A DNA stretch of 64,000 nt, from contig CAIMOJ010000046.1 in NCBI GenBank assembly GCA_903843045.1, positions 650 to 64,649 on the forward strand. Direction: 5' to 3'. This DNA comes from Candidatus Uhrbacteria bacterium (GTDB taxonomy: Bacteria; Patescibacteriota; Patescibacteriia; UBA9934; GWF2-40-263). The notes beneath the pieces were generated by a model. It saw nothing but the letters and a program-made list of their open reading frames with translations, was not told the DNA's origin and ran no database searches. Below are positions 10,597 to 49,799 of the stretch, one piece after another (the first letter of the stretch is position 1; each line of letters begins with the position of its first letter). The position numbers and the translations under genes are program-made.

Positions 10597-11859
10597 TTAT
10601 TCAAGCGGTGTGTGATCAAGATAGTTGAGCGGATTTACCGGGATGCCGTTCAACCGAACTTCGTAGTGCAGGTGCGCCCCGGTCGAAAGTCCCGCGCCCT
10701 GCATTCCAGGGACTCCGCCGGAAAGTCCGATCACCGTTCCGCGTCCGACGTACTCGTCCTGCTTTACGGCAAACTTCGATAAGTGGGCATAGAGCGTCGC
10801 GATGCCGTCCGCGTGGATAACCATCACGTAGTTGCCATACTGCGTTCCGGTCTTCGTCCATGCCACGTATCCCGGCGCGGATGACTTTACCGGAGTGCCG
10901 AGCGGCGTCGGTATATCGATTCCCGGATGCTCGAACAAATGTCGGAACGGATAGGTCGGATCATGATAAAGCGTCGAGAGCCCCTTGTTCGGAGCCAGTG
11001 GCCACGAGATGACACTACTCCCCTGCCCCGTATTGTCCAGAGTTGACAGTTTGCGCTCAACCTCGCCCTGAAGGGCGCCAATCTCCTGGCTGACGGACTG
11101 CTGTTCCGCGTGAATGCTGGATAAAAAGCCCTGAAACGCGCTTTCCGTGCGCTGAGTCTGGGCGAGAAGGAACTGCTTTGCCTCCTTTTCCTCGTCGAGC
11201 TGACCCTTTTGGCGCAATTGGTCGGCCTGGAGATCGGCAAGGCGCGTGCGCTTCCCAACCTGCGAGGCACGGTCATTTATCACGGACGTTCGCTCGGCCT
11301 CCGCGCGCGTCAGAGCGTTCTTCAGGTCTCCCGTTACGCTTGAAAGCTGCTGCAGCCGGTCGAACAGCTCGCCAAACGAATCCGAGCCGAACAGGAGCTG
11401 CAGCGTCATGTCGTTGTCATACGTGTCCATCTTGCGGAGAATGTCGCCAAGGGATGCGCGGTCGAGTTCAAGCTGATGCTCGATCGCGTCGGCGCGGATC
11501 TGCAGAAGCTGGATCTCGTCGTTCGTGGCCGAGATGTCCTCGTCGGTCGCCGAGATGTCCAGTTCAGTCTTCGCCACGCGGTTGTCGAGCAATTCCATCT
11601 CGCTTACGAGCGTCGCGCTCTGCGCCTCCGCATCCGCGATCTTTTTTTTGTACGTGGCCACGCTCCCGTTCAGCTTGTCCACCTCCGCCTTCTTCTGCGC
11701 GATCTGATCGTTCAGGTCCGTGATCGTTCCTGCCGCCTTGGAATCGCTTACGGCGACGGGTGATGCCACATCCGACGTATCCGCAAAAACAGCGCGAACG
11801 ACAACGGACGTCGCGGCCATCACGGCGATCAGCGGAATGAAGAGGAACGATTTTTTCAT
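10597..11859 (-). CDS. EnvC-like murein hydrolase activator / M23 (LytM) peptidase with long N-terminal coiled coil
   Basis: Signal peptide, ~250 aa coiled coil, C-terminal LytM domain (GIDIPTPLGTPV...GLSTGAHLHYEVR). Confidence 0.8.
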   Translation of the reverse strand: MKKSFLFIPLIAVMAATSVVVRAVFADTSDVASPVAVSDSKAAGTITDLNDQIAQKKAEVDKLNGSVATYKKKIADAEAQSATLVSEMELLDNRVAKTELDISATDEDISATNDEIQLLQIRADAIEHQLELDRASLGDILRKMDTYDNDMTLQLLFGSDSFGELFDRLQQLSSVTGDLKNALTRAEAERTSVINDRASQVGKRTRLADLQADQLRQKGQLDEEKEAKQFLLAQTQRTESAFQGFLSSIHAEQQSVSQEIGALQGEVERKLSTLDNTGQGSSVISWPLAPNKGLSTLYHDPTYPFRHLFEHPGIDIPTPLGTPVKSSAPGYVAWTKTGTQYGNYVMVIHADGIATLYAHLSKFAVKQDEYVGRGTVIGLSGGVPGMQGAGLSTGAHLHYEVRLNGIPVNPLNYLDHTPLE

Positions 11860-11872
11860 GTCGATATCGTCT

Positions 11873-11924
11873 CCCTCTCCTTTAAAAAGAGAGGGCTGGG
11901 GTGAGGTCTACGTCGTCTACGTCG
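11873..11924. repeat. Palindromic element family A, copy 1 (intergenic; its 3' end supplies the gltX stop codon)
   Basis: tccctctcctttaaaaagagagggctggggtgaggtctacgtcgtctacgtcg. Confidence 0.7.
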
Positions 11925-13386
11925 CGAGCGAGGCAATCGCTCCGTCCAACCTCCGCATCGTCTCATCCTTGCCAAGCGCCCAGGCGAGCTCGAACGGGCT
12001 CGGCGAGGCGGCACGACCGGACAATGCCACGCGGGTCGGCCACAGGACGTTTCCGTTCGACAAACCCTTTGACTCAATATACGCCTTTATCGACGCTTCG
12101 ACCAATCCGATCTCCGTCCAGACCGTCTCTTCGACGGTCGACAGATGGTCGCGAACCCCGACAAGGTTCGCCTTGCTGTCCGCCGCGTCCGCCTTCTTCC
12201 AGACGAGAATCGCCGGATCGAACGCCGGGACCGACACGTACGCGTCGACGATCTCGACGATGTCCGTGAGCCGTTCCATCCGTGTCTTCTCAATCGCGCA
12301 GATCTTCTCGAGCAACGCCGCGTCAATCGTCTTGCCAGCCGCGTCCAAAAACGGACGAACGAGGGCGACAAGTTCCGCGGACGTCTTCTTCATGACGTAC
12401 TGCCCGTTCATCCAGTTCAGTTTCGCCTGGTCGAACACCGCGCCCGACTTGTTGATCTTCGTCAGGTCGAACAGCTCGATCAATTCGTCGATCGCGTAAA
12501 TCTCCTGGTCCGCTTTCGGATTAAAGCCAAGAAGAGCAACGAAGTTCACAAGCGCCTCCGGAAGATATCCCTTTGCGAGATAGTCCTCGACCGCGACGTC
12601 GCCTTGGCGCTTCGACAGCTTCGACTTATCCGGGTTGAGCAGCAACGGCAGATGCGCAAACAGCGGCGCGTCCCAACCGAACAGGCGGTACAGGATGACG
12701 TGCTTCGGCGTGGAAGAGATCCATTCCTCGCCGCGAATGACGTGCGTGATCTTCATCAAGTGGTCATCGACGACAACGGCCATGTGGTACGTCGGAAACC
12801 CGTCGGACTTGATAAGAACCTGGTCGTCGACCTCCGCATTGTTGATCGTAATCGTTCCGCGGATCACGTCCTCGAAGGAGGTCTCGCCTTCCGGGACGCG
12901 GAGGCGGAGGACGTGCGCTTCGCCGGCTGCCGAGCGTCGTAAAACTTCGTCGGCAGGAAGGCTGAGGCAGTGACGGTCGTACTTCGTCGACAGCTTGGCG
13001 ATCTCCTGCTGCTTGCGAAGCCCGTCGAGACGCTCTGACGAACAGAAACAGACGTACGCGGCGCCGGCGTCGAGCAGACGCTTGGCGTGCTCCTGATAGA
13101 CGGGAAGACGCTCCGACTGGATATACGGCCCCACGTCGCCGACCTGCTCTACGGCTCCGTTCACGAGGCGCGGCCCTTCGTCCGGAAGCAAATTGACGCG
13201 TCCAAAGGCTTCAAGAAGCTTCTCGACGGCGCCGGGGACGAGCCGCTCGCGGTCCGTGTCCTCAATCCGAAGCAAGTACTGTCCCGACTGCTGCCGGGCA
13301 AGCAGATAGTTGTACAACGCCGTGCGAAGTCCGCCGACGTGGAGGAATCCGGTTGGAGACGGGGCGAAGCGAGTTCGAACGGACAT
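11917..13386 (-). CDS. gltX: Glutamyl-tRNA synthetase
   Basis: HIGH-class motif (PSPTGFLHVGG) and KLSKR (KMSKS) motif; 489 aa. Confidence 0.9.
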   Translation of the reverse strand: MSVRTRFAPSPTGFLHVGGLRTALYNYLLARQQSGQYLLRIEDTDRERLVPGAVEKLLEAFGRVNLLPDEGPRLVNGAVEQVGDVGPYIQSERLPVYQEHAKRLLDAGAAYVCFCSSERLDGLRKQQEIAKLSTKYDRHCLSLPADEVLRRSAAGEAHVLRLRVPEGETSFEDVIRGTITINNAEVDDQVLIKSDGFPTYHMAVVVDDHLMKITHVIRGEEWISSTPKHVILYRLFGWDAPLFAHLPLLLNPDKSKLSKRQGDVAVEDYLAKGYLPEALVNFVALLGFNPKADQEIYAIDELIELFDLTKINKSGAVFDQAKLNWMNGQYVMKKTSAELVALVRPFLDAAGKTIDAALLEKICAIEKTRMERLTDIVEIVDAYVSVPAFDPAILVWKKADAADSKANLVGVRDHLSTVEETVWTEIGLVEASIKAYIESKGLSNGNVLWPTRVALSGRAASPSPFELAWALGKDETMRRLDGAIASLAT

Positions 13387-13389
13387 AGG

Positions 13390-14172
13390 TTAGGATTCGT
13401 CGGATTTATGCTTCAGAGCTGCGTCGTATCGCGTGCGGATCGCCTTTGAAAGACCCGGCAGAAGAACGGAAAACTTGTAGGCGAACTCGTGCGGAAAATG
13501 ATGGCCTCGAAGCGAGTACGCGTTCATCACTTTGTCGATGTGGAATCCAGAAACGTCGACGGACGTCATCCAGCGCGTCTTCGACTTGATGATGACCCCG
13601 TCCTTTTCGTCGTACAGGGGTCCGTAGTCCAGTCGAATCCCCGACTTGGTGGCAGACCGCGCCGAGTATGGCGAACGAGAGACGATATTCCACGCGATGT
13701 TATTGTTCGAGAACAGCGCGTTGACCGACTCGAGCTCGCGATGGACCAGACCGTCACAGACGGGACTCAGCTCATAGACGTGCTCGTCCTTGTAAATGCT
13801 CTTCGAGAGGACATCCGGGTGGTTCATCTCCTGGGACGCGACCTTCAGGATCATCGAAAGCTCGTCAAACGCGTCGGATGACTCCTTTGAATTCTTTTCA
13901 GCGTGACACAGGATCTGATTCGACGTCTTGTTCAGCGCGGACTCGACGCCCGCGAACAGGTCCTCGAACACCTTGGCGGCGTCGGCTCGCTCAAGGGACG
14001 CGATGGCCGCGCGAAGCTCGACAAGGAATCGCCCGATTTCGAACGACGCATCCCGATAGTCCTCAAGAATTCCCTCTCGATCCTTCTTTGGAATCTTGTT
14101 CTCGTCGAAGGAGACTTCCTTTCCCGAATGTCCCACGCCGAATTCGCCCATGCGTCGGTTGGCCTCGCTCAT
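13390..14172 (-). CDS. Hypothetical protein (260 aa), no recognisable domain; possible Rx5H near the C-terminus
   Basis: Start MSEANRRMGEF; the Arg-rich 5' extension in the ORF track is spurious; 4-nt overlaps with both neighbours (operon). Confidence 0.4.
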   Translation of the reverse strand: MSEANRRMGEFGVGHSGKEVSFDENKIPKKDREGILEDYRDASFEIGRFLVELRAAIASLERADAAKVFEDLFAGVESALNKTSNQILCHAEKNSKESSDAFDELSMILKVASQEMNHPDVLSKSIYKDEHVYELSPVCDGLVHRELESVNALFSNNNIAWNIVSRSPYSARSATKSGIRLDYGPLYDEKDGVIIKSKTRWMTSVDVSGFHIDKVMNAYSLRGHHFPHEFAYKFSVLLPGLSKAIRTRYDAALKHKSDES

Positions 14173-15005
14173 ACGCCGCGCAGTTGATTGATAATTTCCG
14201 GCACCGTCGCGCGACACGCGGCCACGAACCGATGCCGCCTCAGTGTATCCCAGACGACCACCGCTGGGAAGACGACCGCGGCGTTGAAAATGCGTCGAAA
14301 CCGCCTCGGTTCGATAACGAGCCGCCAGAGCCATTCGAGGCCGACGCGACGGACGAACGCCGGCGCCCGTCGCTTTGTCCCGGCGATCATGTCGAGCGCG
14401 CCGCCGACGCCGATGTAGACGCGGGGAGAGGGGTGAGGAGGGTTCGGAGGGGCGGAGCTTCGAAGAGCCTCGATGAACCGTTCCTGCTTTCCCATGCCGA
14501 GCGCGACGGCAACGACGTCCGCGTTTTCGAGGCTGGTGGATTTCATGCGGTCGGATGAAACACGCCCGGCGTTGCTGTCGTCGCTCGAGACGATCCCAAC
14601 GTCGACCGTCGAGACATCGAGGCCGACGAACCGTGCCCGCATCGCGTCCGCGGCAGACTCCGCGACGCCTGGCCCACCTCCGACGAGAACGAGACGCCTT
14701 CCCTGCTCCGCGCAGAGTTTGGCGAGCAACAGCAGTGTGTCGACTCCGGTGTGGCGATGCGATAAACGATCGCCGGTCAACGCCGATGTCGCAAACCGAA
14801 GTCCGACGCCATCGGGCAAGGACAGATCCGCGCGATTCAGGAGCTCGACGAACGACGGGTCGCACCGGGCGGCGAGGACGAACTCCGGGTTCGGGGTCAC
14901 GATCGCGCACGACGAATTCGAATCCAACCACCCGGACAGGAGGTCCGTAAGCTCGCCTGTGGACAAGTCGGAAATACGCACGCCGAACAGTTCAAAATCT
15001 CTCAT
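14169..15005 (-). CDS. WecG/TagA/CpsF-family (GT26) glycosyltransferase
   Basis: MRDFELFGVRISDL... conserved GT26 core (ALGMGKQE, GVGGALD); contains an in-frame family B repeat insertion. Confidence 0.55.
   Translation of the reverse strand: MRDFELFGVRISDLSTGELTDLLSGWLDSNSSCAIVTPNPEFVLAARCDPSFVELLNRADLSLPDGVGLRFATSALTGDRLSHRHTGVDTLLLLAKLCAEQGRRLVLVGGGPGVAESAADAMRARFVGLDVSTVDVGIVSSDDSNAGRVSSDRMKSTSLENADVVAVALGMGKQERFIEALRSSAPPNPPHPSPRVYIGVGGALDMIAGTKRRAPAFVRRVGLEWLWRLVIEPRRFRRIFNAAVVFPAVVVWDTLRRHRFVAACRATVPEIINQLRGV
14431..14472. repeat. Short G-rich repeat, family B copy embedded in frame in the GT26 gene (encodes ...SSAPPNPPHPSP...)
   Basis: gggtgaggagggttcggaggggcggagcttcgaagagcctcg. Confidence 0.5.
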
Positions 15006-19144: not shown

Positions 19145-19965
19145 TCGTCTTCGCCGCATTCACCCCGCACACCCCGCTTCTCCTTCCGCCCATCGGCAAG
19201 GATGCCCTCCAAAAAATGTCGTCAACGGCCGATGCCATGGATCGGCTCGGCGACGAGCTTCGCGAGGCGCGGCCCGACACGATCGTGATTATCTCCGCCC
19301 ATGCCACCCAGCATGACGGCGCTTTTTCGGCGAACCTGCACGACTCGTATCTCGTCGACCTCCGCGACTTCGGCGACCTCACCACGAGCGCGGAGTTCGA
19401 GCCGAACCTCTCTCTCATCGACGCGATCCAGCGCGCGGTTCGTCGCGCACAAATCCCCTTCACCCTCGACTCGGACTCGACGCTCGACTACGGCACCGCC
19501 GTTCCGCTCGTCGCGCTCGGCGCCAACCACCTGCTGCCAACGCTGAGCGTTGGCAGCAGCGACGGTTGCACGATCGTTCCGATCTCCTTCAGCAACCTTT
19601 CCGCGAAGGACCATTTCGCATTCGGAAAGACACTCAAGGACGTATTTGCAAATCGCAAGGAACGCATCGCCGTCATCGCGTCCGGCGATCTGTCTCATGC
19701 CCTCACTTCTGACGCACCGGCCGGCTACCGACCTGAGGGCGAAATTTTTGATTCTGCCGTCCGACAGGCGGTCGTCCAGGCAAGCGCGTCCCAGCTGCTT
19801 ACGCTCGACGAAGAGACCGTCGAAACGGCGGAGGAATGCGCCTATCGCCCCCTGCTCGTCCTCTTCGGAATCCTCGACCAAATTCCGGCGAGTCCGGAGG
19901 TGCTCTCCTACGAGCACCCATTCGGCGTCGGCTATCTCGTGGCGCAGTTCCGTCTCGACAAATAA
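19141..19965 (+). CDS. MEMO1/AmmeMemoRadiSam-B-like (LigB-type extradiol dioxygenase fold) protein
   Basis: 274 aa; DTIVIISAHATQHDG and GDLSHALT segments typical of the class III dioxygenase/Memo fold; 4-nt overlap with the upstream gene; carries a family C palindrome. Confidence 0.5.
   Translation: MIVFAAFTPHTPLLLPPIGKDALQKMSSTADAMDRLGDELREARPDTIVIISAHATQHDGAFSANLHDSYLVDLRDFGDLTTSAEFEPNLSLIDAIQRAVRRAQIPFTLDSDSTLDYGTAVPLVALGANHLLPTLSVGSSDGCTIVPISFSNLSAKDHFAFGKTLKDVFANRKERIAVIASGDLSHALTSDAPAGYRPEGEIFDSAVRQAVVQASASQLLTLDEETVETAEECAYRPLLVLFGILDQIPASPEVLSYEHPFGVGYLVAQFRLDK
19531..19559. repeat. Palindromic element family C copy (29-nt perfect palindrome, in frame, encodes LLPTLSVGSS)
   Basis: ctgctgccaacgctgagcgttggcagcag. 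Confidence 0.6.
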
Positions 19966-20065: not shown

Positions 20066-21943
20066 GTGATCGCGGAAATCTATCCAATCAAACGCATGCC
20101 GCGCCGGTTCGACGTTTTCGACTATCAGATCCCGGCCGGCATGAACCTCACTCGCGGATCCGGCGTCCGGATCCCGTTTCGGTTTGGAGAAATGCGCGGA
20201 ATCGTGGCGCATGTAACCGACGGCGCAGGACGCGGAAAGACGATAAAGCCGGTCTCCGCGATCCTGTCGGACCTTTCGATGACTGACGACGAGCTCTCGT
20301 GCTTCGAGGACGTCGCGTTCGACACGGCGCAGAGCGTTTCCGCCGTTCTCCACGCGACGATCCCGATCCCGGGAAAACGACTCGTTTCGCCCCCCTCTCC
20401 TTCAAAAGGAGAGGGCCGGGGTGAGGTCTACGTCTCGCCACTCACCATCTCTGCCCGCGAAGCCCCGCAAATCTCTCAGGTCGTCACGGAACTCTCCACC
20501 CGGTCCGAGGCGTTTGTCGCCATTCCTGACCTCAAGCGCGCCGCCGTCCTCATCGCGACCTACCGCCGTGACCACCCGACCGAACCCATCCTCGTCCTCG
20601 CGCCGAACGTTCGCGATGCGCGTCTCCTCGCGTCCCGACTCGCCGGAAACGAGACGGTCGTCGTGACCGGCGAGGAGTCCCCGGCCGAGCGCTTCCGCCG
20701 CTGGAAGCTCTGGCGCGGCCGGAAGACGGGTCTCCTCGTCGGTTCCCGCATGGCAGCCCTTTGGACGCACCCGACGCTCGGCGCGGTATTCCTCGTACGC
20801 TCGGGACACCCCAACCATAAGCAGAACGACCGCAATCCACGCTTCGACGCGCGATTCGTGGGACAGGTTCTCCATGAACGGCTTTCCGCCAAGCGCTTTC
20901 ACCTCGACGTCATGCCAAGCACCGAGGATCTCGTCGGCTTCGGCGCGGCGAACCTTCTCGGCTCGACCGCGCGACCGGAGACGATCATCGCCGACATGAC
21001 GATCGAGCGCGCCGGCTCTCCACACCCTTGCCTCGGCAACAGCCTCGTCATCGAAGTCGCCCAGACGCTCGCCGAGAACCGCCGCGTCATTTGCGCCTAC
21101 AACCTGAAGGGCGTGTCCCGACGACTGCAGTGCGCAGACTGCGGGCACCGGTTTCCGTGCGAGAATTGCGGAGGCGTCCTCGCCCCGTACGTGACCACGG
21201 TCCAATGCCACCGATGCGGACGAACCGAGCCGCTGCCGACCTCCTGCCCCGCATGCCACAAGAACAAACTGACGCCGAAAGGATTTGGAAATCGCGCGGT
21301 CGCTGCGGCCCTCCAGTCGGCGTTCCCCGAGGCAACCGTCGCCTGCCTCGACCGGGACACGGACGTGGATGGCGCGAAGGACGCGGACATCCTCGTCGTT
21401 ACGCGCCATTACGTCGAGAACGTCTTTGACCCGTTTCACCCGCCGGACGTCGGTCTCGTCGCCGAGCTTGAGGGAGACCGGTCCTTGTTCGAGCCGTCCT
21501 ACCGCGCCCTCGAGAAATCCCTGCTCAACGCCGAGGAGTGGCGCGGAATCGCCCACGCCTGCCGCGCGAGGTTCCTCATCCAGACCGAGATGCCCGATCT
21601 GTTCCGCAACGCCCTCTCGCAGCCGGAAAAGGCCCTTCTCGACGACCTTGCCATCCGCAAGTCCTACGCCCAGCCGCCGTATGTCCGCGCCATGACCGTC
21701 GACTTCAAGCCCGACGAGCCGGACGAACAAGCCCGAGGAATCGCAAAGGCCATCGAAGCTATCCGCGCCGTCTCCCCGTCGACGGACATCGCCAAGCTCC
21801 CCTCTCCTTTAAAAGGAGAGGGTCAGGGTGAGGTCTACGCCTCTCTACGTCTCACCGTCCCCCCGTCCGACGAGCGCGCCGTTCTCCAGGCCTTTTCCCC
21901 GCTCGACGACTCGTATATCATTGACACAAGGCCGTTGGAATGA
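20066..21943 (+). CDS. priA: Primosomal protein N' (PriA)-like, apparently lacking a canonical Walker A
   Basis: PriA-type Cys-rich zinc-binding region (CADCG..CENCG..CHRCG..CPACH), PriA-like 3'BD and C-terminal regions; two in-frame family A insertions. Confidence 0.55.
   Translation: MIAEIYPIKRMPRRFDVFDYQIPAGMNLTRGSGVRIPFRFGEMRGIVAHVTDGAGRGKTIKPVSAILSDLSMTDDELSCFEDVAFDTAQSVSAVLHATIPIPGKRLVSPPSPSKGEGRGEVYVSPLTISAREAPQISQVVTELSTRSEAFVAIPDLKRAAVLIATYRRDHPTEPILVLAPNVRDARLLASRLAGNETVVVTGEESPAERFRRWKLWRGRKTGLLVGSRMAALWTHPTLGAVFLVRSGHPNHKQNDRNPRFDARFVGQVLHERLSAKRFHLDVMPSTEDLVGFGAANLLGSTARPETIIADMTIERAGSPHPCLGNSLVIEVAQTLAENRRVICAYNLKGVSRRLQCADCGHRFPCENCGGVLAPYVTTVQCHRCGRTEPLPTSCPACHKNKLTPKGFGNRAVAAALQSAFPEATVACLDRDTDVDGAKDADILVVTRHYVENVFDPFHPPDVGLVAELEGDRSLFEPSYRALEKSLLNAEEWRGIAHACRARFLIQTEMPDLFRNALSQPEKALLDDLAIRKSYAQPPYVRAMTVDFKPDEPDEQARGIAKAIEAIRAVSPSTDIAKLPSPLKGEGQGEVYASLRLTVPPSDERAVLQAFSPLDDSYIIDTRPLE
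20392..20446. repeat. Palindromic element family A, copy 2 (in frame in priA: SPPSPSKGEGRGEVYVSPLT)
   Basis: cccctctccttcaaaaggagagggccggggtgaggtctacgtctcgccactcacc. Confidence 0.75.
21799..21856. repeat. Palindromic element family A, copy 3 (in frame near the priA C-terminus: LPSPLKGEGQGEVYASLRLT)
   Basis: cccctctcctttaaaaggagagggtcagggtgaggtctacgcctctctacgtctcacc. Confidence 0.75.
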
Positions 21944-22452: not shown

Positions 22453-23430
22453 ATGATTCGCATTGCGTTCTTTGGAACCCCCGAGTTCTCCGTCCCATTT
22501 TTAACGGCCCTTGTCGACGACCCCGCATTCGAGGTCGTCGCTGTCGTTTCACAGCCCGATCGTCCGTCCGGACGCAATCACGAGATCGTCCCGACCCCGG
22601 TCAAATCCGTCGCGCTGGACCACCAGATTCCGGTCCTGCAACCTTCGACCCTGCGCGATGAATCCGTCGCGACGACGCTTCGCTCCCTTGATGCGGACTA
22701 CTTTGTCGTGGTCGCCTATGGCAAGATCATCCCGCAGGCCGTCCTCGACGTCCCGCGGCTCGGCTGCGTCAACGTCCATCCTTCCCTCCTGCCGAAGTAC
22801 CGCGGCCCGTCCCCGATGAACTGGGCGATCGCGGAGGGCGACGCGACCACCGGCGTCACGATCATGCTGCTCGACGCGGGGATGGATACCGGACCGATCC
22901 TGTCCCAGACGAGCATCGGCCTTGATTCCGACGAGACGATGGAAACGCTCATGGCCAAGGCGCACGAGCAGGGCGTCCCGCTCCTCGTCGACGCGCTCAA
23001 GCGATTCGCGGCAGGCGAGATCGTCCCCGTCGCGCAAAACGACGAGCTCGCGACGATGACGAAGCTGCTCGACCGCGACGACGGCCGCGTCAACTGGACG
23101 CTTCCCATGGCAACGATCGAGCGACGCCTGCGCGCCTACCAGCCCTGGCCGGGACTCTGGACCGTCTGGACCCGCACGCTCCCCTCTCCTTTAAAAGGAG
23201 AGGGTCAGGGTGAGGTCTACGTCCGTTTGAAGATCCATTCCCTCCAACCGTCCGACTTCCGCGCCGACCTTCCGCCCGGAACCGTCTCAACGAAAAACAG
23301 TCGACTCTTCGTCGACTGTTCGGACGGGACGATCGAGATCCTTGAACTCCAGCCGGAAGGAAAACCCCGAATGTCCGCGGAAGCGTTCCTCCTGGGCTAT
23401 TCCGACGTGAACGGCGCCATGCTTGGCTGA
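22453..23430 (+). CDS. fmt: Methionyl-tRNA formyltransferase
   Basis: Formyltransferase N-domain (FFGTPEF...HPSLLPKYRG) and C-terminal domain; carries an in-frame family A insertion. Confidence 0.85.
   Translation: MIRIAFFGTPEFSVPFLTALVDDPAFEVVAVVSQPDRPSGRNHEIVPTPVKSVALDHQIPVLQPSTLRDESVATTLRSLDADYFVVVAYGKIIPQAVLDVPRLGCVNVHPSLLPKYRGPSPMNWAIAEGDATTGVTIMLLDAGMDTGPILSQTSIGLDSDETMETLMAKAHEQGVPLLVDALKRFAAGEIVPVAQNDELATMTKLLDRDDGRVNWTLPMATIERRLRAYQPWPGLWTVWTRTLPSPLKGEGQGEVYVRLKIHSLQPSDFRADLPPGTVSTKNSRLFVDCSDGTIEILELQPEGKPRMSAEAFLLGYSDVNGAMLG
23181..23221. repeat. Palindromic element family A, copy 4 (in frame in the fmt C-domain: LPSPLKGEGQGEVYV)
   Basis: cccctctcctttaaaaggagagggtcagggtgaggtctacg. 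Confidence 0.75.
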
Positions 23431-25803: not shown

Positions 25804-26501
25804 AGGCGGTGCTTCGTCGCGATAATCGTTCTGGCCTCGTCGTAGCGTCGAACCGACGACGGCCTCCAGCCAAGCCGGTGCCATGGAATCCGATAGATGA
25901 ACGACGGACGCCACTGGGAGATGCCCGGGCGGTCGGATCGGTCGATGACCTGGAACAGCTCACGGCCGACGAACGTCCCCGCATGGCCCCGCTCGAGCAT
26001 CGTGAGCCAGACATCCCAATCCTGGAAGCGCCTGATCGACGGGTCGAACCCGGGGAAATGCTCGCGGCGGACGAGCGACGTCGTGTGGACGAAGTTCATG
26101 CGGCGGAGTCGGTCCTCGTCGAACGAAAAGGACGAGAATGACTTCCAGCCGAATCGAAACCCGCTGTACGCGTAGCTCGCCTCCGGATGGTCGACAAGCG
26201 CCCGTTCCATCGTCGCGAGCATGTCCGGCGCCATGACCACGTCCGCGTCGCAGAAGATCACGAGGTCGCCGGTCGCCCGCGCGAACCCATTGTTCCGCGC
26301 GACGTTCCCGCCCTGGTTCGACTGCGTGACGATCGTGACGCGATCGGCAAACGCGGCGAGGACGCGTTCGGTCTCGTCCGTGCTGCCGTCGTTCACGACG
26401 ATGATCTCGTCGGGCTTCCGCGTCTGAACAAAAAGAGAGTTCAGGCACTCCGAGAGCGTCTTCGCGTGCTGGTAGGACGGGATGATGACGGAGATCGTCA
26501 C
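25800..26501 (-). CDS. GT2-family glycosyltransferase
   Basis: VIIPSYQHAKTLSECLNSL...VVNDGSTD...CDADV. Confidence 0.7.
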   Translation of the reverse strand: MTISVIIPSYQHAKTLSECLNSLFVQTRKPDEIIVVNDGSTDETERVLAAFADRVTIVTQSNQGGNVARNNGFARATGDLVIFCDADVVMAPDMLATMERALVDHPEASYAYSGFRFGWKSFSSFSFDEDRLRRMNFVHTTSLVRREHFPGFDPSIRRFQDWDVWLTMLERGHAGTFVGRELFQVIDRSDRPGISQWRPSFIYRIPWHRLGWRPSSVRRYDEARTIIATKHRL

Positions 26502-27583
26502 AGATATTCCTTCAATTTCTCAAGCTGTCTTTCGTTCGTAAACTCGTCGGCAGCCCGCCGATAGGCCGCTTCGCCCAGCCGCTGCCGTTCCGCGTCGCTC
26601 ATGGCCAGAAGATACACCGCGTCCGCGAGCGCCGCAATGTCCCCGTCCTTGACGAGAATGCCGGTTATTCCGTCGAGAACAGCCTCGTCGACGCCCCGCA
26701 TGTCCGTCGCAACCGACGGGACGCCGTGCAACGCGGCCTCGAGATACACCATGCCGAATCCCTCGCGGTCGACGGAATCCGCCACGACCGGCTCGACGAA
26801 TATGTCGGCGGCGGCGTAATGGTCGGAGAGCTGATCGTCGGCCACGTCGCGAGCGATCGTCACGCGGTCGTCGAGACCGAGCTCGGAGATGCGTCGCGCG
26901 ATCGTCTCGAGATAAGGCCCGTCGCCGACGATGTCGTATCGAATGTCGATCGCCGGCCACTGGCGGCGAAGCAATGCCATCGCGTCGAGAACGCGGACGT
27001 GTCCCTTGCGCGAGACGAGCCTTGCCACGGTCAGCAGGTTTACCGGACCGATCGCTCCAAGCATCCCAGCCCCCGGTCCCCTGACTCGTTTCCTCTCCTC
27101 ATAGGGAGGAGGGGTCAGGGGTGGTTGACGCGCTTCGACCGTCGGATACACGACAATCGTCCTCCTTACCCCAAACTCTTCTCTCACTTCCCTCTCCAGC
27201 GCCTTCGAGTTCGCGACGACAACCTTCGCCCCGCGCAGAACCATCCCCGCGACGATTCGCTTCATCCATCGCGTCTTCGCAAGCCCGACATCCATCCCAT
27301 GGACGATCACGACGTACGGCGTGCCCGTCATCCATCGGAAAACCATCGCCGCCGTCCCGATCGGAAGGACATGGCTAACCACGATCTGACTACCAACGCT
27401 TGGCATCGGTAGCAAACGTCGATCGCGAACAAACCGTCGAAGCGCCTGCCACCACCTGGTGGACGGATCAACAACCGTCACTTCCATCGAATCAGAAAAA
27501 TATGCGGTGAGATTCCCGAGATATCTTGCGACTCCGCCCCGCGATGGCGCGTAATCAGTCGTGTATAGCCGTGTCTTCGGCAT
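26498..27583 (-). CDS. GT4-family glycosyltransferase (GT-B fold)
   Basis: C-terminal EX7E motif (EGFGMVYLEAALHGVPSV); inter-domain linker carries a palindromic insertion and the N-domain a family C copy. Confidence 0.7.
   Translation of the reverse strand: MPKTRLYTTDYAPSRGGVARYLGNLTAYFSDSMEVTVVDPSTRWWQALRRFVRDRRLLPMPSVGSQIVVSHVLPIGTAAMVFRWMTGTPYVVIVHGMDVGLAKTRWMKRIVAGMVLRGAKVVVANSKALEREVREEFGVRRTIVVYPTVEARQPPLTPPPYEERKRVRGPGAGMLGAIGPVNLLTVARLVSRKGHVRVLDAMALLRRQWPAIDIRYDIVGDGPYLETIARRISELGLDDRVTIARDVADDQLSDHYAAADIFVEPVVADSVDREGFGMVYLEAALHGVPSVATDMRGVDEAVLDGITGILVKDGDIAALADAVYLLAMSDAERQRLGEAAYRRAADEFTNERQLEKLKEYL
27077..27120. repeat. Imperfect G/C-rich palindrome related to family A, in frame in the GT4 linker (QPPLTPPPYEERKRVRGPG)
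   Basis: cccctgactcgtttcctctcctcatagggaggaggggtcagggg. Confidence 0.5.
27397..27426. repeat. Palindromic element family C copy (in frame in GT4, encodes LLPMPSVGSQ on the minus strand)
   Basis: ctgactaccaacgcttggcatcggtagcaa. Confidence 0.5.
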
Positions 27584-29027
27584 AGGCGGTCTTTCGACGG
27601 ATAAGCCGCATGATGGCGGCAAAATGATGCTTTTGGACAGACCGGGACAACACGAGCATGACGGCATAGACGAATGCCGCGAACGGAAGAGCGAGGTAGA
27701 ATCCCGTCTCGGGACGAACGAGGCGCGTGGCGAATCCCATGGCGGCGGCGGAACAAATGATCGGAACGGTCGTCCTCATCAGTCGCGCGAACCCGTATTC
27801 CGGGATCACCCGGGGAACGAACCAGAAGCCGGCGACGAACAGGAAGGTGAAGCTGATCACGCCGGAATAGGCGGCTCCGAGGATTCCGAACGTCGGAATC
27901 AGGAAAAAGTTGCATATCACGTTGATGACCATCGTCACGCCCATCACCGCGGTCTTCGTTGCCTGCCGATTCGCGGCATTCAGGAGCGAGCCGACGGGAA
28001 AGTCGAGGAAGATGGGAATGAGGACGAAGATGAGGACCGCGAGTACCGGCGCGGCGTTCGCATACCCGTCCCCGGCAAGCGCGATCGCGTCCCCGGCAAC
28101 GGCCCAGAGACCGAACGCGATCGGGGCCGCGAGAATCGTCACGTACCAGACGGCCTCGTCGAACAGTCGCGTCAGGCCTTCCGTGTCCTTCTTCCCCACC
28201 ATCGCGCTCATTCCCGGATACAGCGCGGCGACGAATGCCATCGGGAGGAACTGGAACGCGTACGTGAACTTATAGGCCACGGCATAGACGCCGACCGCTG
28301 CGGTTCCGACGACCTTGGAGATGATGAGCGAATCGACGTACGAGTAAACCTTCACGAACATCCCGGCGAGGGCAAACGGGAGCGCGGCGAGCAATAACGA
28401 TCGAATCGCCTCTTTGTCGAATCTTGGTCGAAGAACGTTCCAGCCATAGATCGCAACGACATGGCGCGCGGAATAGAAGGCGTTGAACGTCGAGCCGACA
28501 AGGAGCGCGAGGACGAGTAGATGAAGCGACGGGTGCGTCAGAAGGACGATCCCGCCGAACAGGAGCGTGCACGTCTGTCCCACGAAGATCCCGAGCGACT
28601 CGAACCGCAGCGTGTGGTGTCCGCGCAGGACGCCGTAGAACAATAGGCTCATCGCGTCAGCAAGCATGACAAGCGACGCCACGAGGACGAGCTCGCGAAC
28701 GGTCGCATCGTATCCCAGCGCCCATGACATCGCCACCGCCCCGACCGTCGCCAGTACCATGAACGGAATCTTCAGCCAGACGGCCCGTCGGATCAGGTCC
28801 GCGGCGCGCTCCGGAACCTTCGCGACGTCGCGAATCACCACCGGCGTCACGCCAAGGTCGGTGATCGTCGAAAAGATCGTCGTAATCGAAAGCGCGAGGA
28901 AGTAATCCCCCGTCGCCTCGGGCCGCATCACGCGCGCGAGCAACAGGAAATAGAAGAACGCGAGGATCTTCTGCGCGATGGACGCGGCGGTGAGATAGAG
29001 GGTATTTTTTGCGACGGGCGAGGACAT
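27555..29027 (-). CDS. Wzx-type (MOP superfamily) polysaccharide flippase
   Basis: 490 aa, ~14 TM helices; N-terminal pattern typical of polysaccharide biosynthesis protein family. Confidence 0.65.
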   Translation of the reverse strand: MSSPVAKNTLYLTAASIAQKILAFFYFLLLARVMRPEATGDYFLALSITTIFSTITDLGVTPVVIRDVAKVPERAADLIRRAVWLKIPFMVLATVGAVAMSWALGYDATVRELVLVASLVMLADAMSLLFYGVLRGHHTLRFESLGIFVGQTCTLLFGGIVLLTHPSLHLLVLALLVGSTFNAFYSARHVVAIYGWNVLRPRFDKEAIRSLLLAALPFALAGMFVKVYSYVDSLIISKVVGTAAVGVYAVAYKFTYAFQFLPMAFVAALYPGMSAMVGKKDTEGLTRLFDEAVWYVTILAAPIAFGLWAVAGDAIALAGDGYANAAPVLAVLIFVLIPIFLDFPVGSLLNAANRQATKTAVMGVTMVINVICNFFLIPTFGILGAAYSGVISFTFLFVAGFWFVPRVIPEYGFARLMRTTVPIICSAAAMGFATRLVRPETGFYLALPFAAFVYAVMLVLSRSVQKHHFAAIMRLIRRKTAYAEDTAIHD

Positions 29028-41281: not shown

Positions 41282-42673
41282 ATGAAGCTTCTCCAGCCCA
41301 TCTCAGGCACCGTCGACCGGCTTGCACCGGACGGCAGCGGCGTGATCAATCGTCCCGAGGGAAAACCTTTTTTGATTTATAACGTGATTCCGGGCGAGGA
41401 GGTGACCGCGACAGTCGTGAAGCGCGGGCCGGACGGCGTGCGGGCGAAGCTCGACTCGATCGTCGTCGCGTCGCCGGACCGCGTCGCGCCGCGCTGCCCG
41501 TATGCCGGAACGTGCGGGGGGTGCAAGTGGCAGCACGTGGATTATACACGGCAGCGGACGGAGAAGCTGAATCGGCTGCGGTCGACCTTCGCGGAAGCTG
41601 CGACCGAGTGCCCCGTCGAATCCGTCGTCGCGTCGCCGGACCAATTCTACTACCGCAATCGCATGGACTTCACCTTCGGCCGCGACGGCGAGCTCGGTTT
41701 GAAGATGCCGGACAAATGGTGGGCCGCGCTCAACCTGGAGACATGCTACCTGCTCTCCCCCGAATCCGTCGAGATCGTCAACGCGGTCCGCGAGTGGGCA
41801 CGATCGACGGGATTGCCGTTCTGGGACGGAAAGACGCACGCGGGATTCTTCCGATATCTCGTGATCCGCGAGGGAAAGAACACGGGCGAGCGCATGGTGA
41901 CGCTCGTGACGGCGACGAACGACGCGTTTCGTCCCGAGGGACTCGTCGCCGCGATTGGAGACCGGGCGACTTCGATTGTTCACGGGATCAACGATGGCAT
42001 CACCGACCTCTCGATCTCCGACGTGCTCGTCCCGCTCAAGGGCAACCCGTTCATTCACGAGGAGATAAACGGCGTCCGGTTTAAGATCACGCCGAACGCG
42101 TTCTTCCAGACGAACTCGGCAATGGCCGCCAAGCTCCAGGACGAGGTCGTGCGCCACTGCGAGACAGCCGTCGTTGGCAAGACGAACCCGACCGTCCTCG
42201 ACCTCTACTGCGGATCGGGATTCTTCTCGCTCGCGTTGGCGAAGCGATCCTCGACGATCAAGGTCGTCGGCATCGAGGAAAACGCCGAGGCGATCGCCTG
42301 CGCCAAGGAAAACGTGGCCGCGAACGCCGTCGAGGCCGAGTACTTCGTCTCAAAGGCCGAGGAGTTCGACTGGAAGAGCTACGCCCCCGACGTCGTCATC
42401 GTCGACCCGCCGCGCGCCGGAATGCACCCAAAGGTCATCGAGACCCTCCTTGAGGCCGCGCCGCCGACGATCATTTACATTTCCTGCAAATACGAGCGCT
42501 TCCTGATGGAATGGAACGGAACCGCCAACAGCGCCCCGGCCCTCTCGACGAAATACCGCCTCGCCGACGCGGCCGCCCTCGACCTCTTCCCGCACACCCC
42601 GCACATCGAGTTCGTCGCCCGCCTCGAATCGCTCCCCTCTCCTTCAAAAGGAGAGGGACAGGGTGAGGTCTAA
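41282..42673 (+). CDS. RlmD/RumA-family 23S rRNA (uracil-5)-methyltransferase (TRAM + Fe-S + SAM MTase)
   Basis: TRAM N-domain, Cys cluster (CPYAGTCGGCKWQH), SAM motif LDLYCGSGFFSLA; C-terminus extended by a family A element that supplies the TAA stop. Confidence 0.75.
   Translation: MKLLQPISGTVDRLAPDGSGVINRPEGKPFLIYNVIPGEEVTATVVKRGPDGVRAKLDSIVVASPDRVAPRCPYAGTCGGCKWQHVDYTRQRTEKLNRLRSTFAEAATECPVESVVASPDQFYYRNRMDFTFGRDGELGLKMPDKWWAALNLETCYLLSPESVEIVNAVREWARSTGLPFWDGKTHAGFFRYLVIREGKNTGERMVTLVTATNDAFRPEGLVAAIGDRATSIVHGINDGITDLSISDVLVPLKGNPFIHEEINGVRFKITPNAFFQTNSAMAAKLQDEVVRHCETAVVGKTNPTVLDLYCGSGFFSLALAKRSSTIKVVGIEENAEAIACAKENVAANAVEAEYFVSKAEEFDWKSYAPDVVIVDPPRAGMHPKVIETLLEAAPPTIIYISCKYERFLMEWNGTANSAPALSTKYRLADAAALDLFPHTPHIEFVARLESLPSPSKGEGQGEV
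42634..42673. repeat. Palindromic element family A, copy 5 (encodes C-terminal LPSPSKGEGQGEV* of the rlmD-like gene)
   Basis: cccctctccttcaaaaggagagggacagggtgaggtctaa. Confidence 0.75.
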
Positions 42674-42722
42674 GGTTGGCTCCACGATTGACGTCCGTCC
42701 CATTTCCTGATATTCTCCCGCC

Positions 42723-47468: not shown

Positions 47469-49799
47469 TTAGTCGAACTTGATCGTCTGACCGGAGTAGA
47501 CCGTGCCGGACTTTAGCGGGACCCAGCCGTCATTGTCGTCGGACGGCGGAGGAGTTGGAACGACGGGGGCCGGAGTCGGTGGCTTCGGAGTTGGCGCGGG
47601 CGTCGTGACGGGAGCCGGAACCGGAGCCGGGTTACTACCAACGCTCGGCGTTGGCAGCAACGGCTTGGGAGCGACGGGTTGTTGTGGATGTGAGTTGTTT
47701 GTAATTTGTGGCGTAGCGGACGGCCTCGGCTTCGGGCTTTGCAGAAACGCCTGGGGCGAGTTCGGGCCGCCGGTGCCCTTGTTAGGGCGCTTGCGGCGCG
47801 TGTCCTTGCCTGGGACGAAGGGGCGCGGTCCCGTCGCGGCCGGGGTTGGCTGTAATTGTCGCGGAGTCGACGGAGAGCCGTGCGTCGCGGCAACCGCGAT
47901 CGGCGCGGCTGGCGTAACCGTCGGGGGGCTGTTGAGCGGAGACGACAGCATCTGAGACATGAAGTCGGTCGCGGGCGCTGGCGTCGAGACGACGGGCTTT
48001 GGCGCGACGACCACCCCTGACCCCTCTCCCACCGTCGGGCGGGATCCCGCCAACGGCGGTGACTGCCTATCAGGAGGGGAAACGTGCTTGATGACCGGAG
48101 CTGCCGGAGGCCTGGCGACTGGGGCCAATGCGGTGAGCGATACGGACGGCGCGGGACGAGGGGCCGCGACAACGGGAACGCTCTCAACCACGGTCCTTCG
48201 AGTTGTCTCAGGGCGATCTTGAGAGATCGGCGGCGGGGGCGGCGACGGAGGACGTCTCGTGTCCTTGCGGTCCTTCCCCTTCGCGCGTTCCTCCTTCACG
48301 ATCTCGATGCATTCCTCGCAGTAAATCGGACGACTCGTGTCGAGCTGAACTGCGAGCGCGATGTCCTTGTTACAGCGCGAACACTTGTAGTCGAACCTCG
48401 GTTTCTTCGCGCCCTTCGCGTCTTTTTTCTTCTGCTCCATCTCCGCGACCATCTTCCCGATGGACTCGTCGTCTCCCATCCCCGTCCACTTCATGATCTT
48501 GTCCGCGATCTCCTCGCGCGGCGTCGTGTACCGCTCGCGGCTCACCTTGATCACCTTCTCTTCCGATCCCGTCCTTTTGGCAATCGGCGGGAGCGTCTGA
48601 GCCGAGAATGGCTGGCTCGTAACGCCGTCGATGAGAAGCTTCAAATAGATGTTGTACTTGGGAAGGTTGATGATGTCCTCCGGCAAAAAGCGCGGCGCGA
48701 ACTCCGTTTCCATGTATGCGGCGTCCGGCGAACCGACGCGGAACGTAACGATCGTTCCGACGTTTCCAAACACGGCCTCGCGCACCTCGTCGGAGAGCTG
48801 GGCAATGTATTGGTGGGCCATCGTCAGGCACAGGCGGTACTTGCGCGCCTCGGATAGGATTCCGGCAAACGATTCCGTCGCGAAGTTCTGGAACTCGTCC
48901 ACGTACATATAAAAATCCTTGCGCTCGTGCTCCGGCTGGTCCACGCGTTCCATGGCCGACAGCTGCAGCTTCGTGATCAGCAGACCGCCGAGCAGGCGCA
49001 TGTTGTCCTCGCCGATGCGGCCCTTCGACAGGTTGATGATCAGGATCTTCTGCTCGTCCATCAGCTGGCGGATGTTGATGGTCGACTTTACCTGCGCGAC
49101 GATATTGCGAATGACCGAGGCGGACAAAAACTGACCGATCTTGTTCTGGATCGGGGCCACGGCCTCCTGCGCGTACTTCTCCTGGTAGCTGGCGAATTCC
49201 ACCAGCCAGAACTGCTTCACCACCGGATCCTGCACGTTTGCGACGATCTTGCGTCGGAAGTCCGCATCGGACAGCATGCGGTTGATTCCAAGCAGCGTCG
49301 ACCCCGGGTTGTCCAAGAGCGCGAGGATCGCGTTGTTCAGGATGTACTCCATGCGCGCGCTCCAGAGGTTCTCCCAAAGCTTCTTGAACACGCCCATCAT
49401 TCCGGACGCGACCAGGTGCTTCGTCTTCTCGCTGACCGTCTCCAAGATGTTGAATCCGATCGGAAAATCAAGGTCGGCCGGATTGAAGTAGATGACGTCG
49501 TTTATGCGCCAGCTCGGGATATAGTCGATAAGCCGCTCGGCCGTGTCGCCGTGCGGGTCGATGTACGCGCATCCGTGGCCGGCATAGATGTCGGTAAGAA
49601 TGAGGTTTTCGAGCAGGACCGTCTTGCCCATGCCCGTTTTTCCGATCACGTACACGTGGCGGCGGCGGTCATCGGTCTTAACGCCAAATTTCCGCATCTG
49701 ATTGCGGAAATTGGTGCGTGCAAAGTAGTTTACCTCGTTCTCGTGATCGTGGGCGTAGCTCATACGGGAAGGTTCGGGGGAATACCGTCGTCGACCCAT
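47469..49799 (-). CDS. VirD4/TraD/TraG-like (type IV coupling protein or HerA/DUF87-like) P-loop ATPase with C-terminal zinc ribbon and ~280-aa Pro/Ala/Thr-rich tail
   Basis: Walker A VIGKTGMGKT, Walker B FYMYVDEFQNF, coupling-protein-type LTMAHQYIAQL motif, CxxC-x17-CxxC ribbon (CSRCN...CEEC), low-complexity tail (PPSPPPPP, APVPAPVTTPAPTPKPP); alternative start 49763. Confidence 0.7.
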   Translation of the reverse strand: MGRRRYSPEPSRMSYAHDHENEVNYFARTNFRNQMRKFGVKTDDRRRHVYVIGKTGMGKTVLLENLILTDIYAGHGCAYIDPHGDTAERLIDYIPSWRINDVIYFNPADLDFPIGFNILETVSEKTKHLVASGMMGVFKKLWENLWSARMEYILNNAILALLDNPGSTLLGINRMLSDADFRRKIVANVQDPVVKQFWLVEFASYQEKYAQEAVAPIQNKIGQFLSASVIRNIVAQVKSTINIRQLMDEQKILIINLSKGRIGEDNMRLLGGLLITKLQLSAMERVDQPEHERKDFYMYVDEFQNFATESFAGILSEARKYRLCLTMAHQYIAQLSDEVREAVFGNVGTIVTFRVGSPDAAYMETEFAPRFLPEDIINLPKYNIYLKLLIDGVTSQPFSAQTLPPIAKRTGSEEKVIKVSRERYTTPREEIADKIMKWTGMGDDESIGKMVAEMEQKKKDAKGAKKPRFDYKCSRCNKDIALAVQLDTSRPIYCEECIEIVKEERAKGKDRKDTRRPPSPPPPPISQDRPETTRRTVVESVPVVAAPRPAPSVSLTALAPVARPPAAPVIKHVSPPDRQSPPLAGSRPTVGEGSGVVVAPKPVVSTPAPATDFMSQMLSSPLNSPPTVTPAAPIAVAATHGSPSTPRQLQPTPAATGPRPFVPGKDTRRKRPNKGTGGPNSPQAFLQSPKPRPSATPQITNNSHPQQPVAPKPLLPTPSVGSNPAPVPAPVTTPAPTPKPPTPAPVVPTPPPSDDNDGWVPLKSGTVYSGQTIKFD
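47631..47660. repeat. Palindromic element family C copy (encodes LLPTPSVGSN in the ATPase tail)
   Basis: ttactaccaacgctcggcgttggcagcaac. Confidence 0.5.

Follow-up and report, generated by a model that had tools for sequence, protein, structure and literature searches.

In the window analysed here, a 64,000-nucleotide stretch of a Candidatus Uhrbacteria contig (CAIMOJ010000046.1, assembly GCA_903843045.1), an rlmD-like 23S rRNA (uracil-5)-methyltransferase gene ends within a short palindromic repeat, the fifth of several copies in the window. We consider it very probable that this copy 5 is a repeat of the BoxC/PIT/TM family that was inserted at the end of rlmD and now encodes the tail and the stop codon of the gene, with sister copies residing in frame in other genes. 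The features of the locus are listed below; loci of other genomes that were compared carry numbers beginning with L.

41282-42673, plus strand: rlmD-like 23S rRNA (uracil-5)-methyltransferase gene, a 463-amino acid open reading frame (ORF) in which residues 450-463 and the stop codon are element sequence.
42629-42684, plus strand: copy 5 insert of 56 nt, consisting of a TCGCTC junction, the 35-nt core and an extension, as delimited against the empty sites L004 and L005, the different insert in L001 and the filled site L040.
42635-42669, plus strand: copy 5 core, with arm CCCTCTCCTT (42635-42644), a loop (42645-42647), arm AAGGAGAGGG (42648-42657), a second loop (42658-42660) and the third strand GGGTGAGGT (42661-42669).
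42670-42684, plus strand: copy 5 extension CTAAGGTTGGCTCCA, homologous to the leader of a DUF559 gene in L006 and L041 (Shine-Dalgarno (SD)-like AAGGTGG, then ATG).
42671-42673, plus strand: TAA stop codon of rlmD, located within the 3' extension of copy 5, as read from the sequence and the ORF.
42685-42710, plus strand: relic of the ancestral rlmD tail (..IDxxxIS) including the old stop TGA (42708-42710), out of frame and untranslated, as derived from the alignment with the empty relatives.

The RlmD/RumA-type identity of the gene product is based on Pfam PF05958 (tRNA_U5-meth_tr, E = 2e-22), whose match stops at residue 444, corresponding to profile position 350 of 357; the alignment with the closest solved homologue, PDB 2jjq, finishes at query residue 448. 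The final rlmD codons (42632-42673) read CTC CCC TCT CCT TCA AAA GGA GAG GGA CAG GGT GAG GTC TAA, and the new gene end amounts to 14 residues (S followed by LPSPSKGEGQGEV) plus TAA, with eight ancestral codons (RIDxxxxS) lost. The site without the element is preserved in L004 (RlmD 91% identical) and L005 (85%), which read CTCGAAC, then GGATTGAC...TTTCCTGA, and continue directly into era. In the window, the relic codons ATTGAC...ATTTCCTGA are still present 3' of copy 5, to be compared with the tails RIDGPSIS (P0003) and RIDSAPNS (P0004) of related proteins. Among the best 120 RlmD homologues listed, which come from Candidatus Uhrbacteria and other Patescibacteria, the element-derived tail is absent from the other 119; with the exception of a few entries that are truncated or frame-shifted, these have a C-terminus of the form ...HIEFVARLE(R) followed by 0-8 residues. 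The identical RlmD protein (P0001) was found on 19 contigs, of up to 195 kb, belonging to several assemblies. A first-pass annotation, made from the letters of the window, had assigned the last 13 residues of the protein to the element and had proposed a comparison of C-termini with those of orthologues: this comparison, with 119 tail-less homologues and two relatives with a clean empty site, bears out the assigned origin, whereas the count has to be corrected to 14 residues plus the stop codon.

Two close relatives carry insertions at the same site. L040 (RlmD 94% identical) harbors the same core in frame +1, resulting in the end LRSPLL followed by a stop, here via the TAA of a TTTAAAA loop. 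L001 (GCA_037131775.1; RlmD 95% identical) retains CTACGT at the left junction and continues with a different repeat, ~85 nt long; its protein terminates after LR. RlmD identity is thus 94-95% within the filled clade formed by the window, L001 and L040, versus 91% and 85% in the empty outgroups, and at one rlmD site three genomes, with a pairwise RlmD identity of 91-95%, have acquired three different C-termini. Taken together, the alignments show the tail and stop of rlmD as apparently replaced by the element, and they place the entry of copy 5, eight codons before the stop, in what would be the common ancestor of the window genome and its two close relatives. As a side observation, the ~85-nt repeat of L001, TAGGCTTAAGGCATAAGGCCAAAAGGCGCAAGG...CCTTAGGCCTTCTGCCTT, occupies positions 11385-11470 of the rlmD-era spacer and provides the rlmD stop there; it is similar to the AAGGYRGGCTTTTATCCC units that stand in tandem in L041, within the DUF559 leader (3225-3270).

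A related issue is the origin of the TAA. The extension CTAAGGTTGGCTCCA occurs only once in the window. The whole extension CTAAGGTKGGCTC recurs after the element copy that precedes the DUF559 gene in L006 and L041. There, the upstream Wzy_C-like gene is also terminated by the CTAAGGTKGGCTC extension, as ...PSPLKGEGQGEV plus stop (..GEV and stop), and the junctions of copy 5 and L006 can be aligned over ~60 nt. Because the CTAAGGTKGGCTC extension is common to copy 5 and to the DUF559-preceding copy in L006/L041, the TAA is, as far as can be read from these alignments, an inherited variant of the element and not a mutation made at the rlmD locus. The TACG-to-TAAG change at rlmD that had been invoked in the first-pass annotation is hence to be abandoned.

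The core of the element, CCCTCTCCTT-N3-AAGGAGAGGG-N3-GGGTGAGGT, comprises 35 nt and is built from a pyrimidine arm, the complementary purine arm and a G-rich third strand in mirror symmetry to the purine arm. Its recurrence is clearly non-random and the sequence and coordinates given for it earlier were correct, as the hairpin pattern CCCTCTCCTT-N4-AGGAGAGGG (23 nt) was found five times in the window versus 0 times in 100 shuffles, and repeat finding returned a 53-nt direct-repeat family with five members, all on the plus strand. The DNA of copy 5 adopts a hairpin with a 10-bp stem in the predicted minimum-free-energy fold (-12.5 kcal/mol, z = -2.3), a prediction that captures the hairpin part alone. 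For the triplex symmetry we used a motif finder with 8-nt arms, requiring a perfect stem in the strict setting and permitting one stem mismatch in the relaxed one. The strict setting detected four copies in the window and gave 0 hits in 30 mononucleotide shuffles thereof; the relaxed setting added copy 1 and a sixth copy (27092-27125), with the shuffle control covering the strict setting only. In the cores of copies 2-5, all nine of nine purine-motif triads can be formed according to hand inspection (8/8 in the finder), and these cores are identical at all 30 bases of the search pattern, with differences confined to the five free positions. The third strand covaries with the stem: 8/8 triads were obtained for 162 of 485 strand-wise hairpins (36 distinct stems), compared with 2.1% when third strands were swapped.

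The Uhrbacteria loci fall into at least four subfamilies with the stems CCCTCTCC (A), CCCCTCCTC (B), CCCCTCCTG (C) and CCCCTCCTT (D), and share conserved flanks, namely ACG/AAG-YTC on the 5' side and CTACG or CGTCGCGC on the 3' side. The exact pattern of 30 specified bases was encountered at 38 loci in a search of GTDB representatives (one genome per species). These loci stem from four Uhrbacteria metagenome-assembled genomes (MAGs), from other phyla of the Candidate Phyla Radiation (CPR) and from further groups, the list being Nomurabacteria, Portnoybacteria, Gracilibacteria, Gastranaerophilales, Ignavibacteriales, Bacteroidota, Cyanobacteria and Acinetobacter; in phyla other than that of the window, most copies are intergenic. 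The window gave no match to Rfam at gathering thresholds, and the element corresponds to no curated RNA family. Phages were considered as vectors as well, an idea that gains no support from the single hit in 2.9 million viral contigs. Judged by its sequence pattern and predicted symmetry, the element is shown to be a variant of the BoxC/PIT/TM intrastrand triplex motif that is not specific to one lineage.

The window contains six copies, all in plus orientation (pyrimidine arm first), with cores starting at 11873, 20393, 21800, 23182, 27092 and 42635. They are located in genes on, or beside genes of, both strands; five lie inside coding sequence and one is intergenic. In addition to copy 5, these are:

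11873-11927, plus strand: copy 1, intergenic, with the core at 11873-11907 (one stem mismatch) and the 3' extension CTACGTCGTCTACGTCGCGA.
20393-20427, plus strand: copy 2 core, in frame in priA (20066-21943), read as ..PSPSKGEGRGEVY..
21800-21834, plus strand: copy 3 core, likewise in priA and in frame, close to the C-terminus, read as ..KLPSPLKGEGQGEVY..; lacking in the L046 orthologue (39-nt difference).
23182-23216, plus strand: copy 4 core, in frame in fmt (start at about 22453, end at 23430), read as ..TLPSPLKGEGQGEVY..; lacking in L044, present in L046 and L011.
27092-27133, plus strand: copy 6, subfamily B (CCTCTCCTC/GAGGAGGGG/GGGGTGGT plus box TGACGCGC) with one stem mismatch, inside a GT4 glycosyltransferase gene.

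The in-frame internal copies in priA and fmt read LPSP[S/L]KGEG[Q/R]GEVY. Copy 6 lies in a gene of the opposite strand (26498-27667, minus strand), where its reverse reading QPPLTPPPYEERK falls into an interdomain linker. Comparison with relatives shows that such in-frame copies are, according to the alignments, polymorphic: the fmt site is filled in the window, L046 and L011 and empty in L044; the priA copy 3 site is filled in the window and L044 and empty in L046; an extra priA site is filled in L044 only and empty in the window and L046. For priA copy 2 there is no clean empty allele, as the L046 linker simply differs, and the alignment of Fmt with solved structures is ambiguous around the insertion. 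The inserted unit measures ~39-42 nt, equivalent to 13-14 codons. The sequence CTACG...CTACG was considered as a target-site duplication and rejected, since in copy 3 the second CTACG can be aligned with priA sequence native to L044 and L046; the 'duplicated terminus' as seen in copy 3 is therefore sequence of priA itself. That annotation had concluded that the elements remodel the 3' ends of genes, which holds for rlmD and only weakly for gltX (see below), most copies being situated in frame inside genes instead; the intragenic in-frame copies, the sixth copy (27092-27133) and the membership in a cross-phylum motif had been overlooked.

Forward frame +2 always meets a TGA in GGGTGAGG, and frame +1 meets a TAA where the loop is TTTAAAA; the surviving internal forward copies would thus share one frame because the other two run into stops. 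In copies 3 and 4 (21808-21816 and 23190-23198; CCT TTA AAA GGA), the TTTAAAA loop constitutes in this frame the canonical -1 slippery heptamer U_UUA_AAA; a -1 shift would lead into the TGA of GGGTGAGG, which is probably incidental. Gene ends read from the element were also seen elsewhere, in the DUF559 gene of L006, in L020, in L033 and in E. coli YcjD (..SPSP and stop). Further intragenic cases were noted outside the sites discussed so far. In L004, an inverted subfamily-D pair (8317-8443) sits in the C-terminal part of an mnmA-like gene (PF03054; 8213-9376, minus strand), each of its arms falling into an open frame. The L001 orthologue of this gene contains just one copy, of subfamily C and again intragenic (14160-14202), and the mnmA region of the window has none. 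In two non-CPR genomes, L019 (7483-7560) and L038 (6790-6866), a long ORF includes, in frame, two tandem modules, ATCCCCTCCTTACGAAGGAGGGGCGGGGGGAGGT and then CCCTCTCCTTTAAAAGGAGAGGG...GGGTGAGGT; Uhrbacteria are thus not the only bacteria with intragenic copies. Almost all 4-kb bins of the window have a negative GC skew, from which we conclude that the window probably represents one replichore; the uniform orientation of the copies may then reflect a bias relative to replication, by analogy with single-strand transposition systems. The window also contains three copies (19533-19559, 27389-27415 and 47634-47660) of a second, unrelated palindromic family, D9, with the approximate consensus ACTRCCAACGCTNGGCRTYGGYAGCAA.

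The situation at gltX (11917-13386, minus strand) is less clear-cut. Copy 1 fills the 57-nt spacer between the gltX stop and the ATG of an M23 peptidase gene (11857-11859, minus strand), and the CTA at 11917-11919, in the second TCTACG and 10 nt past the 35-nt core, is indeed the TAG stop of gltX, as had been claimed. The claimed remodelling of this gene is weak: GltX comprises 489 amino acids versus 487-489 in relatives, and its C-terminus ..RRLDGAIASLAT ends at the usual position when compared with ..AIGLL, ..AINLLS and ..AITRLA. The gltX stop and perhaps the last three codons (L-A-T) are held by the 3' box CGTCGCGA, which is kept after many copies of the element. Since the stop sits in this conserved box, it is plausible that the element provides it, an effect that would concern at most about three codons. 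The gltX-M23 junction is variable among relatives, with zero spacer in L046, where the gltX TGA overlaps the peptidase ATG, a 37-nt spacer without element in L045, and a subfamily-B element in L044.

Recurrence of the copy 5 extension upstream of a DUF559 gene leads to the question of a partner. In both L006 and L041, a gene of 118-128 amino acids lies between two subfamily-A copies in inverted orientation and is assigned to Pfam DUF559 (E = 1e-34 to 1e-37); considering all flanked genes, the match to DUF559 (PF04480) has E values of 1e-29 to 1e-37. The order along the unit is core - CTAAGGTGGGCTCT - ATG...stop - inverted core, where the leader equals the extension following copy 5. L039, a paralogue in the same MAG, has its DUF559 gene bracketed by subfamily B/C copies, and in L029 (Cytophagia) the DUF559 gene adjoins a motif array. 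In E. coli MG1655, ycjD (DUF559) is the sole gene between fabI and sapF, and TM_ECO #9, at the original BoxC locus, is found 168 bp downstream of it. Inspection of this region (L048; NC_000913.3, 1351204-1351420) further revealed that ycjD ends in ...RRSPSP and a stop, encoded by CCC TCT CCC TGA within a degenerate motif hairpin, and therefore a gene tail and stop are read from the motif in E. coli too; this hairpin is followed by a duplicate of ~45 nt of the ycjD 3' end and then by TM_ECO #9.

The association was quantified at 80 metagenomic loci fetched by protein similarity alone, starting from an alignment of five DUF559 proteins. A motif was present within 250 bp of the DUF559 gene at 36 of the 80 loci, and on both sides at 24. 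Motif density near DUF559 genes (85 in 37.6 kb) exceeded that elsewhere (16 in 234.5 kb) 33-fold, and enrichment was confined to the two 250-bp bins beside the gene (41 and 44 motifs), with at most four motifs in every other bin. The nearest upstream motif was in '+' orientation in 25/30 loci (p = 3e-4) and the nearest downstream one in '-' orientation in 25/31 (p = 9e-4). If all distant motifs are placed in an assumed 12% intergenic fraction, an enrichment of about four-fold is left; the orientation rule does not depend on this assumption. The motif is thus associated with DUF559 genes both statistically and architecturally. DUF559 is placed in the Vsr/PD-(D/E)XK clade, of which a group I intron homing endonuclease is also a member (PMC3424549). 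We tentatively propose, with slightly less than even confidence, that DUF559 (YcjD-type, Vsr-like PD-(D/E)XK) genes have the BoxC/PIT/TM repeats as their non-autonomous partners. The two would form a cross-phylum system that parallels REP-RAYT (repetitive extragenic palindromes and their RAYT transposases) with another nuclease fold and a triplex-capable recognition element. The full unit would be motif(+) - leader - DUF559 - motif(-), and solo copies such as copy 5 would be its scattered ends, which in gene-dense CPR genomes may survive mainly as in-frame insertions and new tails.

These observations can be combined into the following scenario. A copy of the dispersed triplex-motif repeat would have landed in rlmD eight codons before the stop; the rlmD gene of the window would be read through the element in the sole universally open forward frame (S-LPSPSKGEGQGEV) and translation would halt at the TAA of the extension, leaving the old tail and stop stranded downstream. 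The frame bias may represent a survival filter imposed by purifying selection: copies in frame 0 or with an open reverse frame would persist inside genes, and those near a gene end would replace tail and stop, in a host genome with almost no intergenic space. Less certain is the next step, according to which DUF559 nucleases may spread or maintain the repeats that bracket their genes in inverted orientation; in that case, copy 5 could represent the left end of a motif-DUF559 unit, together with its leader, standing alone.

Several observations weigh against this interpretation or narrow its scope. The polarity of the event at rlmD, gain versus precise loss, follows from the outgroup comparison only, and the three filled genomes differ at both rlmD junctions, which an ancient insertion with subsequent rearrangement and repeated hits at a hot spot would explain equally well. 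Production of the rlmD tail is a prediction from the DNA sequence. At the filled/empty junctions of fmt, priA copy 3 and rlmD we saw neither a terminal inverted repeat nor a target-site duplication of more than 1-2 nt. For the E. coli motif, neither a stable triplex in vivo nor promoter or terminator activity nor an occurrence on mobile elements was observed (PMC4666352). The statement that copies are 'mostly intragenic' refers to homology-verified cases only, as the coding-frame census based on GC content at third codon positions (GC3) is unreliable: a census of Uhrbacteria copies by open-frame length and GC3 was dropped, since long spurious ORFs arise at 60% GC and known cases were misclassified. 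Regarding the partner gene, no DUF559 gene is present in the 64-kb window, a DUF559 gene lies nearby in only 5 of 47 motif loci, and the link is statistical, such that homing of a nuclease gene into repeat pairs would fit as well.

This last point deserves consideration as an explanation in its own right: DUF559 might be a homing-endonuclease-like selfish gene that enters existing inverted pairs, the repeats themselves spreading or arising by slippage, repair or another enzyme. We regard this as rather unlikely, yet it is the most serious competitor. The homing endonuclease within the DUF559/Vsr clade (PMC3424549) would be in line with it, as would the gene-less convergent motif pairs of E. 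coli, whose arms are oriented as in the units, and the low share of motif loci with a DUF559 gene. On the other hand, genome nzgw368 possesses two DUF559 paralogues, each with a different flanking subfamily, as well as solo copies of both, and the ycjD-adjacent copy is of the commonest type in E. coli; neither finding is decisive. That the element may primarily be a regulatory hairpin between rlmD and era (a terminator, an attenuator or an SD-sequestering structure) with incidental coding overlap is improbable. It is a stable 10-bp hairpin, its purine arm contains an SD-like AAGGAG and it ends up 50 nt upstream of the era start, but a T-run is absent after the hairpin, identical copies reside deep in priA and fmt, at positions where termination would do harm, the PIT motif is devoid of promoter or terminator activity in E. 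coli (PMC4666352), and the site is empty in relatives with the same rlmD-era arrangement.

Even less can be said for the tail being an ancestral, selected RlmD extension with the protein motif PSPxKGEGxGEV that was lost in relatives, a possibility which we consider largely refuted. Occurrence of the same peptide in PriA, Fmt and Wzy_C-like proteins, together with the identical protein P0001 on its 19 contigs, could be cited in its favor; however, the DNA is conserved beyond coding need (copies 2-5 are alike at the 30 fixed bases), the same DNA is intergenic in copy 1, reverse-read as an unrelated peptide in copy 6 and, in other phyla, located for the most part between genes, and the ancestral tail and stop are still present 3' of copy 5, while the other 119 listed homologues have no such tail. 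Assembly or binning artefacts, i.e. chimeric joins at a repeat, have a negligible probability: the window does belong to a metagenome-assembled genome, and assemblies typically break at repeats, but the exact RlmD recurs on those 19 contigs, orthologous sites are filled in the independent MAGs L011, L036, L040, L044 and L046, and the reading frame is kept across every internal copy. An inserted BoxC/PIT/TM-family repeat thus remains our preferred explanation for the end of rlmD.

BoxC/PIT elements have a history going back to 1992 and are on record for hundreds of genomes, and to our knowledge their function, origin and mode of spread have never been established; the earlier descriptions reportedly go back to Bergler (1992) and Hoyne & Maher (2000). 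What is new here is the intragenic lifestyle of the motif in a CPR genome, its clear presence/absence polymorphism among close relatives and the statistically supported partnership with DUF559. Our literature search returned no report that ties DUF559 or ycjD to these repeats or that places the repeats inside coding sequence, although such a report may exist. In CPR bacteria the family appears to be active, as genomes whose orthologous proteins are ~90% identical differ in which sites are filled and which are empty. In an almost spacer-free genome, the motif would add loops of 13-14 residues to essential genes and exchange C-termini and stops. A gene for a DUF559 nuclease is the consistent partner, represented at the original BoxC locus of E. 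coli by ycjD, and this makes the old question testable in E. coli. From a practical point of view, segments or tails of the PSPxKGEGxGEV type in metagenome-predicted proteins should be treated as repeat-derived.

Among known systems, the closest is the E. coli motif TM_ECO, formerly BoxC/PIT, defined as CCCTCNCCC N3-6 GGGNGAGGG N3 GGGNGAGGG with 23 copies in E. coli and 3610 occurrences in 262 proteobacterial genomes (Holder et al. 2015, PMC4666352). As an isolated oligonucleotide, it forms a purine-motif intrastrand triplex in vitro, as demonstrated by circular dichroism (CD) and nuclear magnetic resonance (NMR); the E. coli copies are 'always intergenic' and tied to local instability, and their function is not known (PMC4666352). 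The arrangement CCCTCTCCC-N-GGGAGAGGG-NNN-GGGTGAGGG of E. coli has its counterpart in CCCTCTCCT(T)-N3-(A)AGGAGAGGG-NNN-GGGTGAGGT in the window, whose core, CCCTCTCCT T CAA A AGGAGAGGG ACA GGGTGAGGT, displays the same order of blocks and loops. The triads are those of an antiparallel purine motif (G•G-C, A•A-T, T•A-T), and a triplex is predicted from them. Shared features are also the multi-copy, dispersed occurrence (six in 64 kb), the distribution over many phyla and the local instability among close relatives. The core departs from the E. coli pattern at the end triad only, which is T-A•T in the window, a coordinated change from C-G•G in E. coli. Five of the six window copies lie in coding sequence rather than between genes, intergenic location being a property of the E. 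coli copies that is not part of the motif definition. The Uhrbacteria copies have extra flanks, and neither mobility nor a partner gene has been previously reported in the literature searched.

Rickettsia palindromic elements (RPE), reportedly first described by Ogata et al. in 2000, resemble the present case in that a reduced genome has taken up a selfish palindromic element, in frame, within essential genes (here fmt, priA and the GT4 gene), the genes gaining a peptide segment and remaining functional. RPE (families RPE-1 to RPE-8) are ~100-150 bp long, are known from Rickettsia and are not known to be related in sequence to triplex repeats, whereas the present unit has ~42 nt, triplex-type symmetry and a cross-phylum distribution; the comparison with RPE is one by description, and we do not claim membership. 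With REP/REPIN-RAYT systems (REPIN, paired REP sequences) the element shares the short hairpin repeats that often occur as inverted pairs without target-site duplication, a single-copy enzyme gene enclosed on both sides by the genome's repeat type in inverted orientation (L006, L041, L039; 24/80 loci) and, in subfamily A, the end CTAC, equivalent to GTAG on the other strand and thus similar to the 5' tetranucleotide of REP. Unlike in REP-RAYT, the flanked gene is a DUF559 PD-(D/E)XK gene and not a Y1 (HUH) transposase, and the repeat has a mirror-symmetric third strand. Bacterial MITEs (miniature inverted-repeat transposable elements), such as Correia/NEMIS, ERIC and Nezha (review PMC10969869), are likewise small non-autonomous repeats next to or in genes and able to give new C-termini or stops, but have terminal inverted repeats and target-site duplications stemming from a DDE insertion sequence, neither of which is seen here. 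The finding at rlmD hence falls into a known category, the alteration of a gene end by a selfish repeat in the way of RPE and MITEs, with the catalogued BoxC/PIT/TM motif as the repeat.

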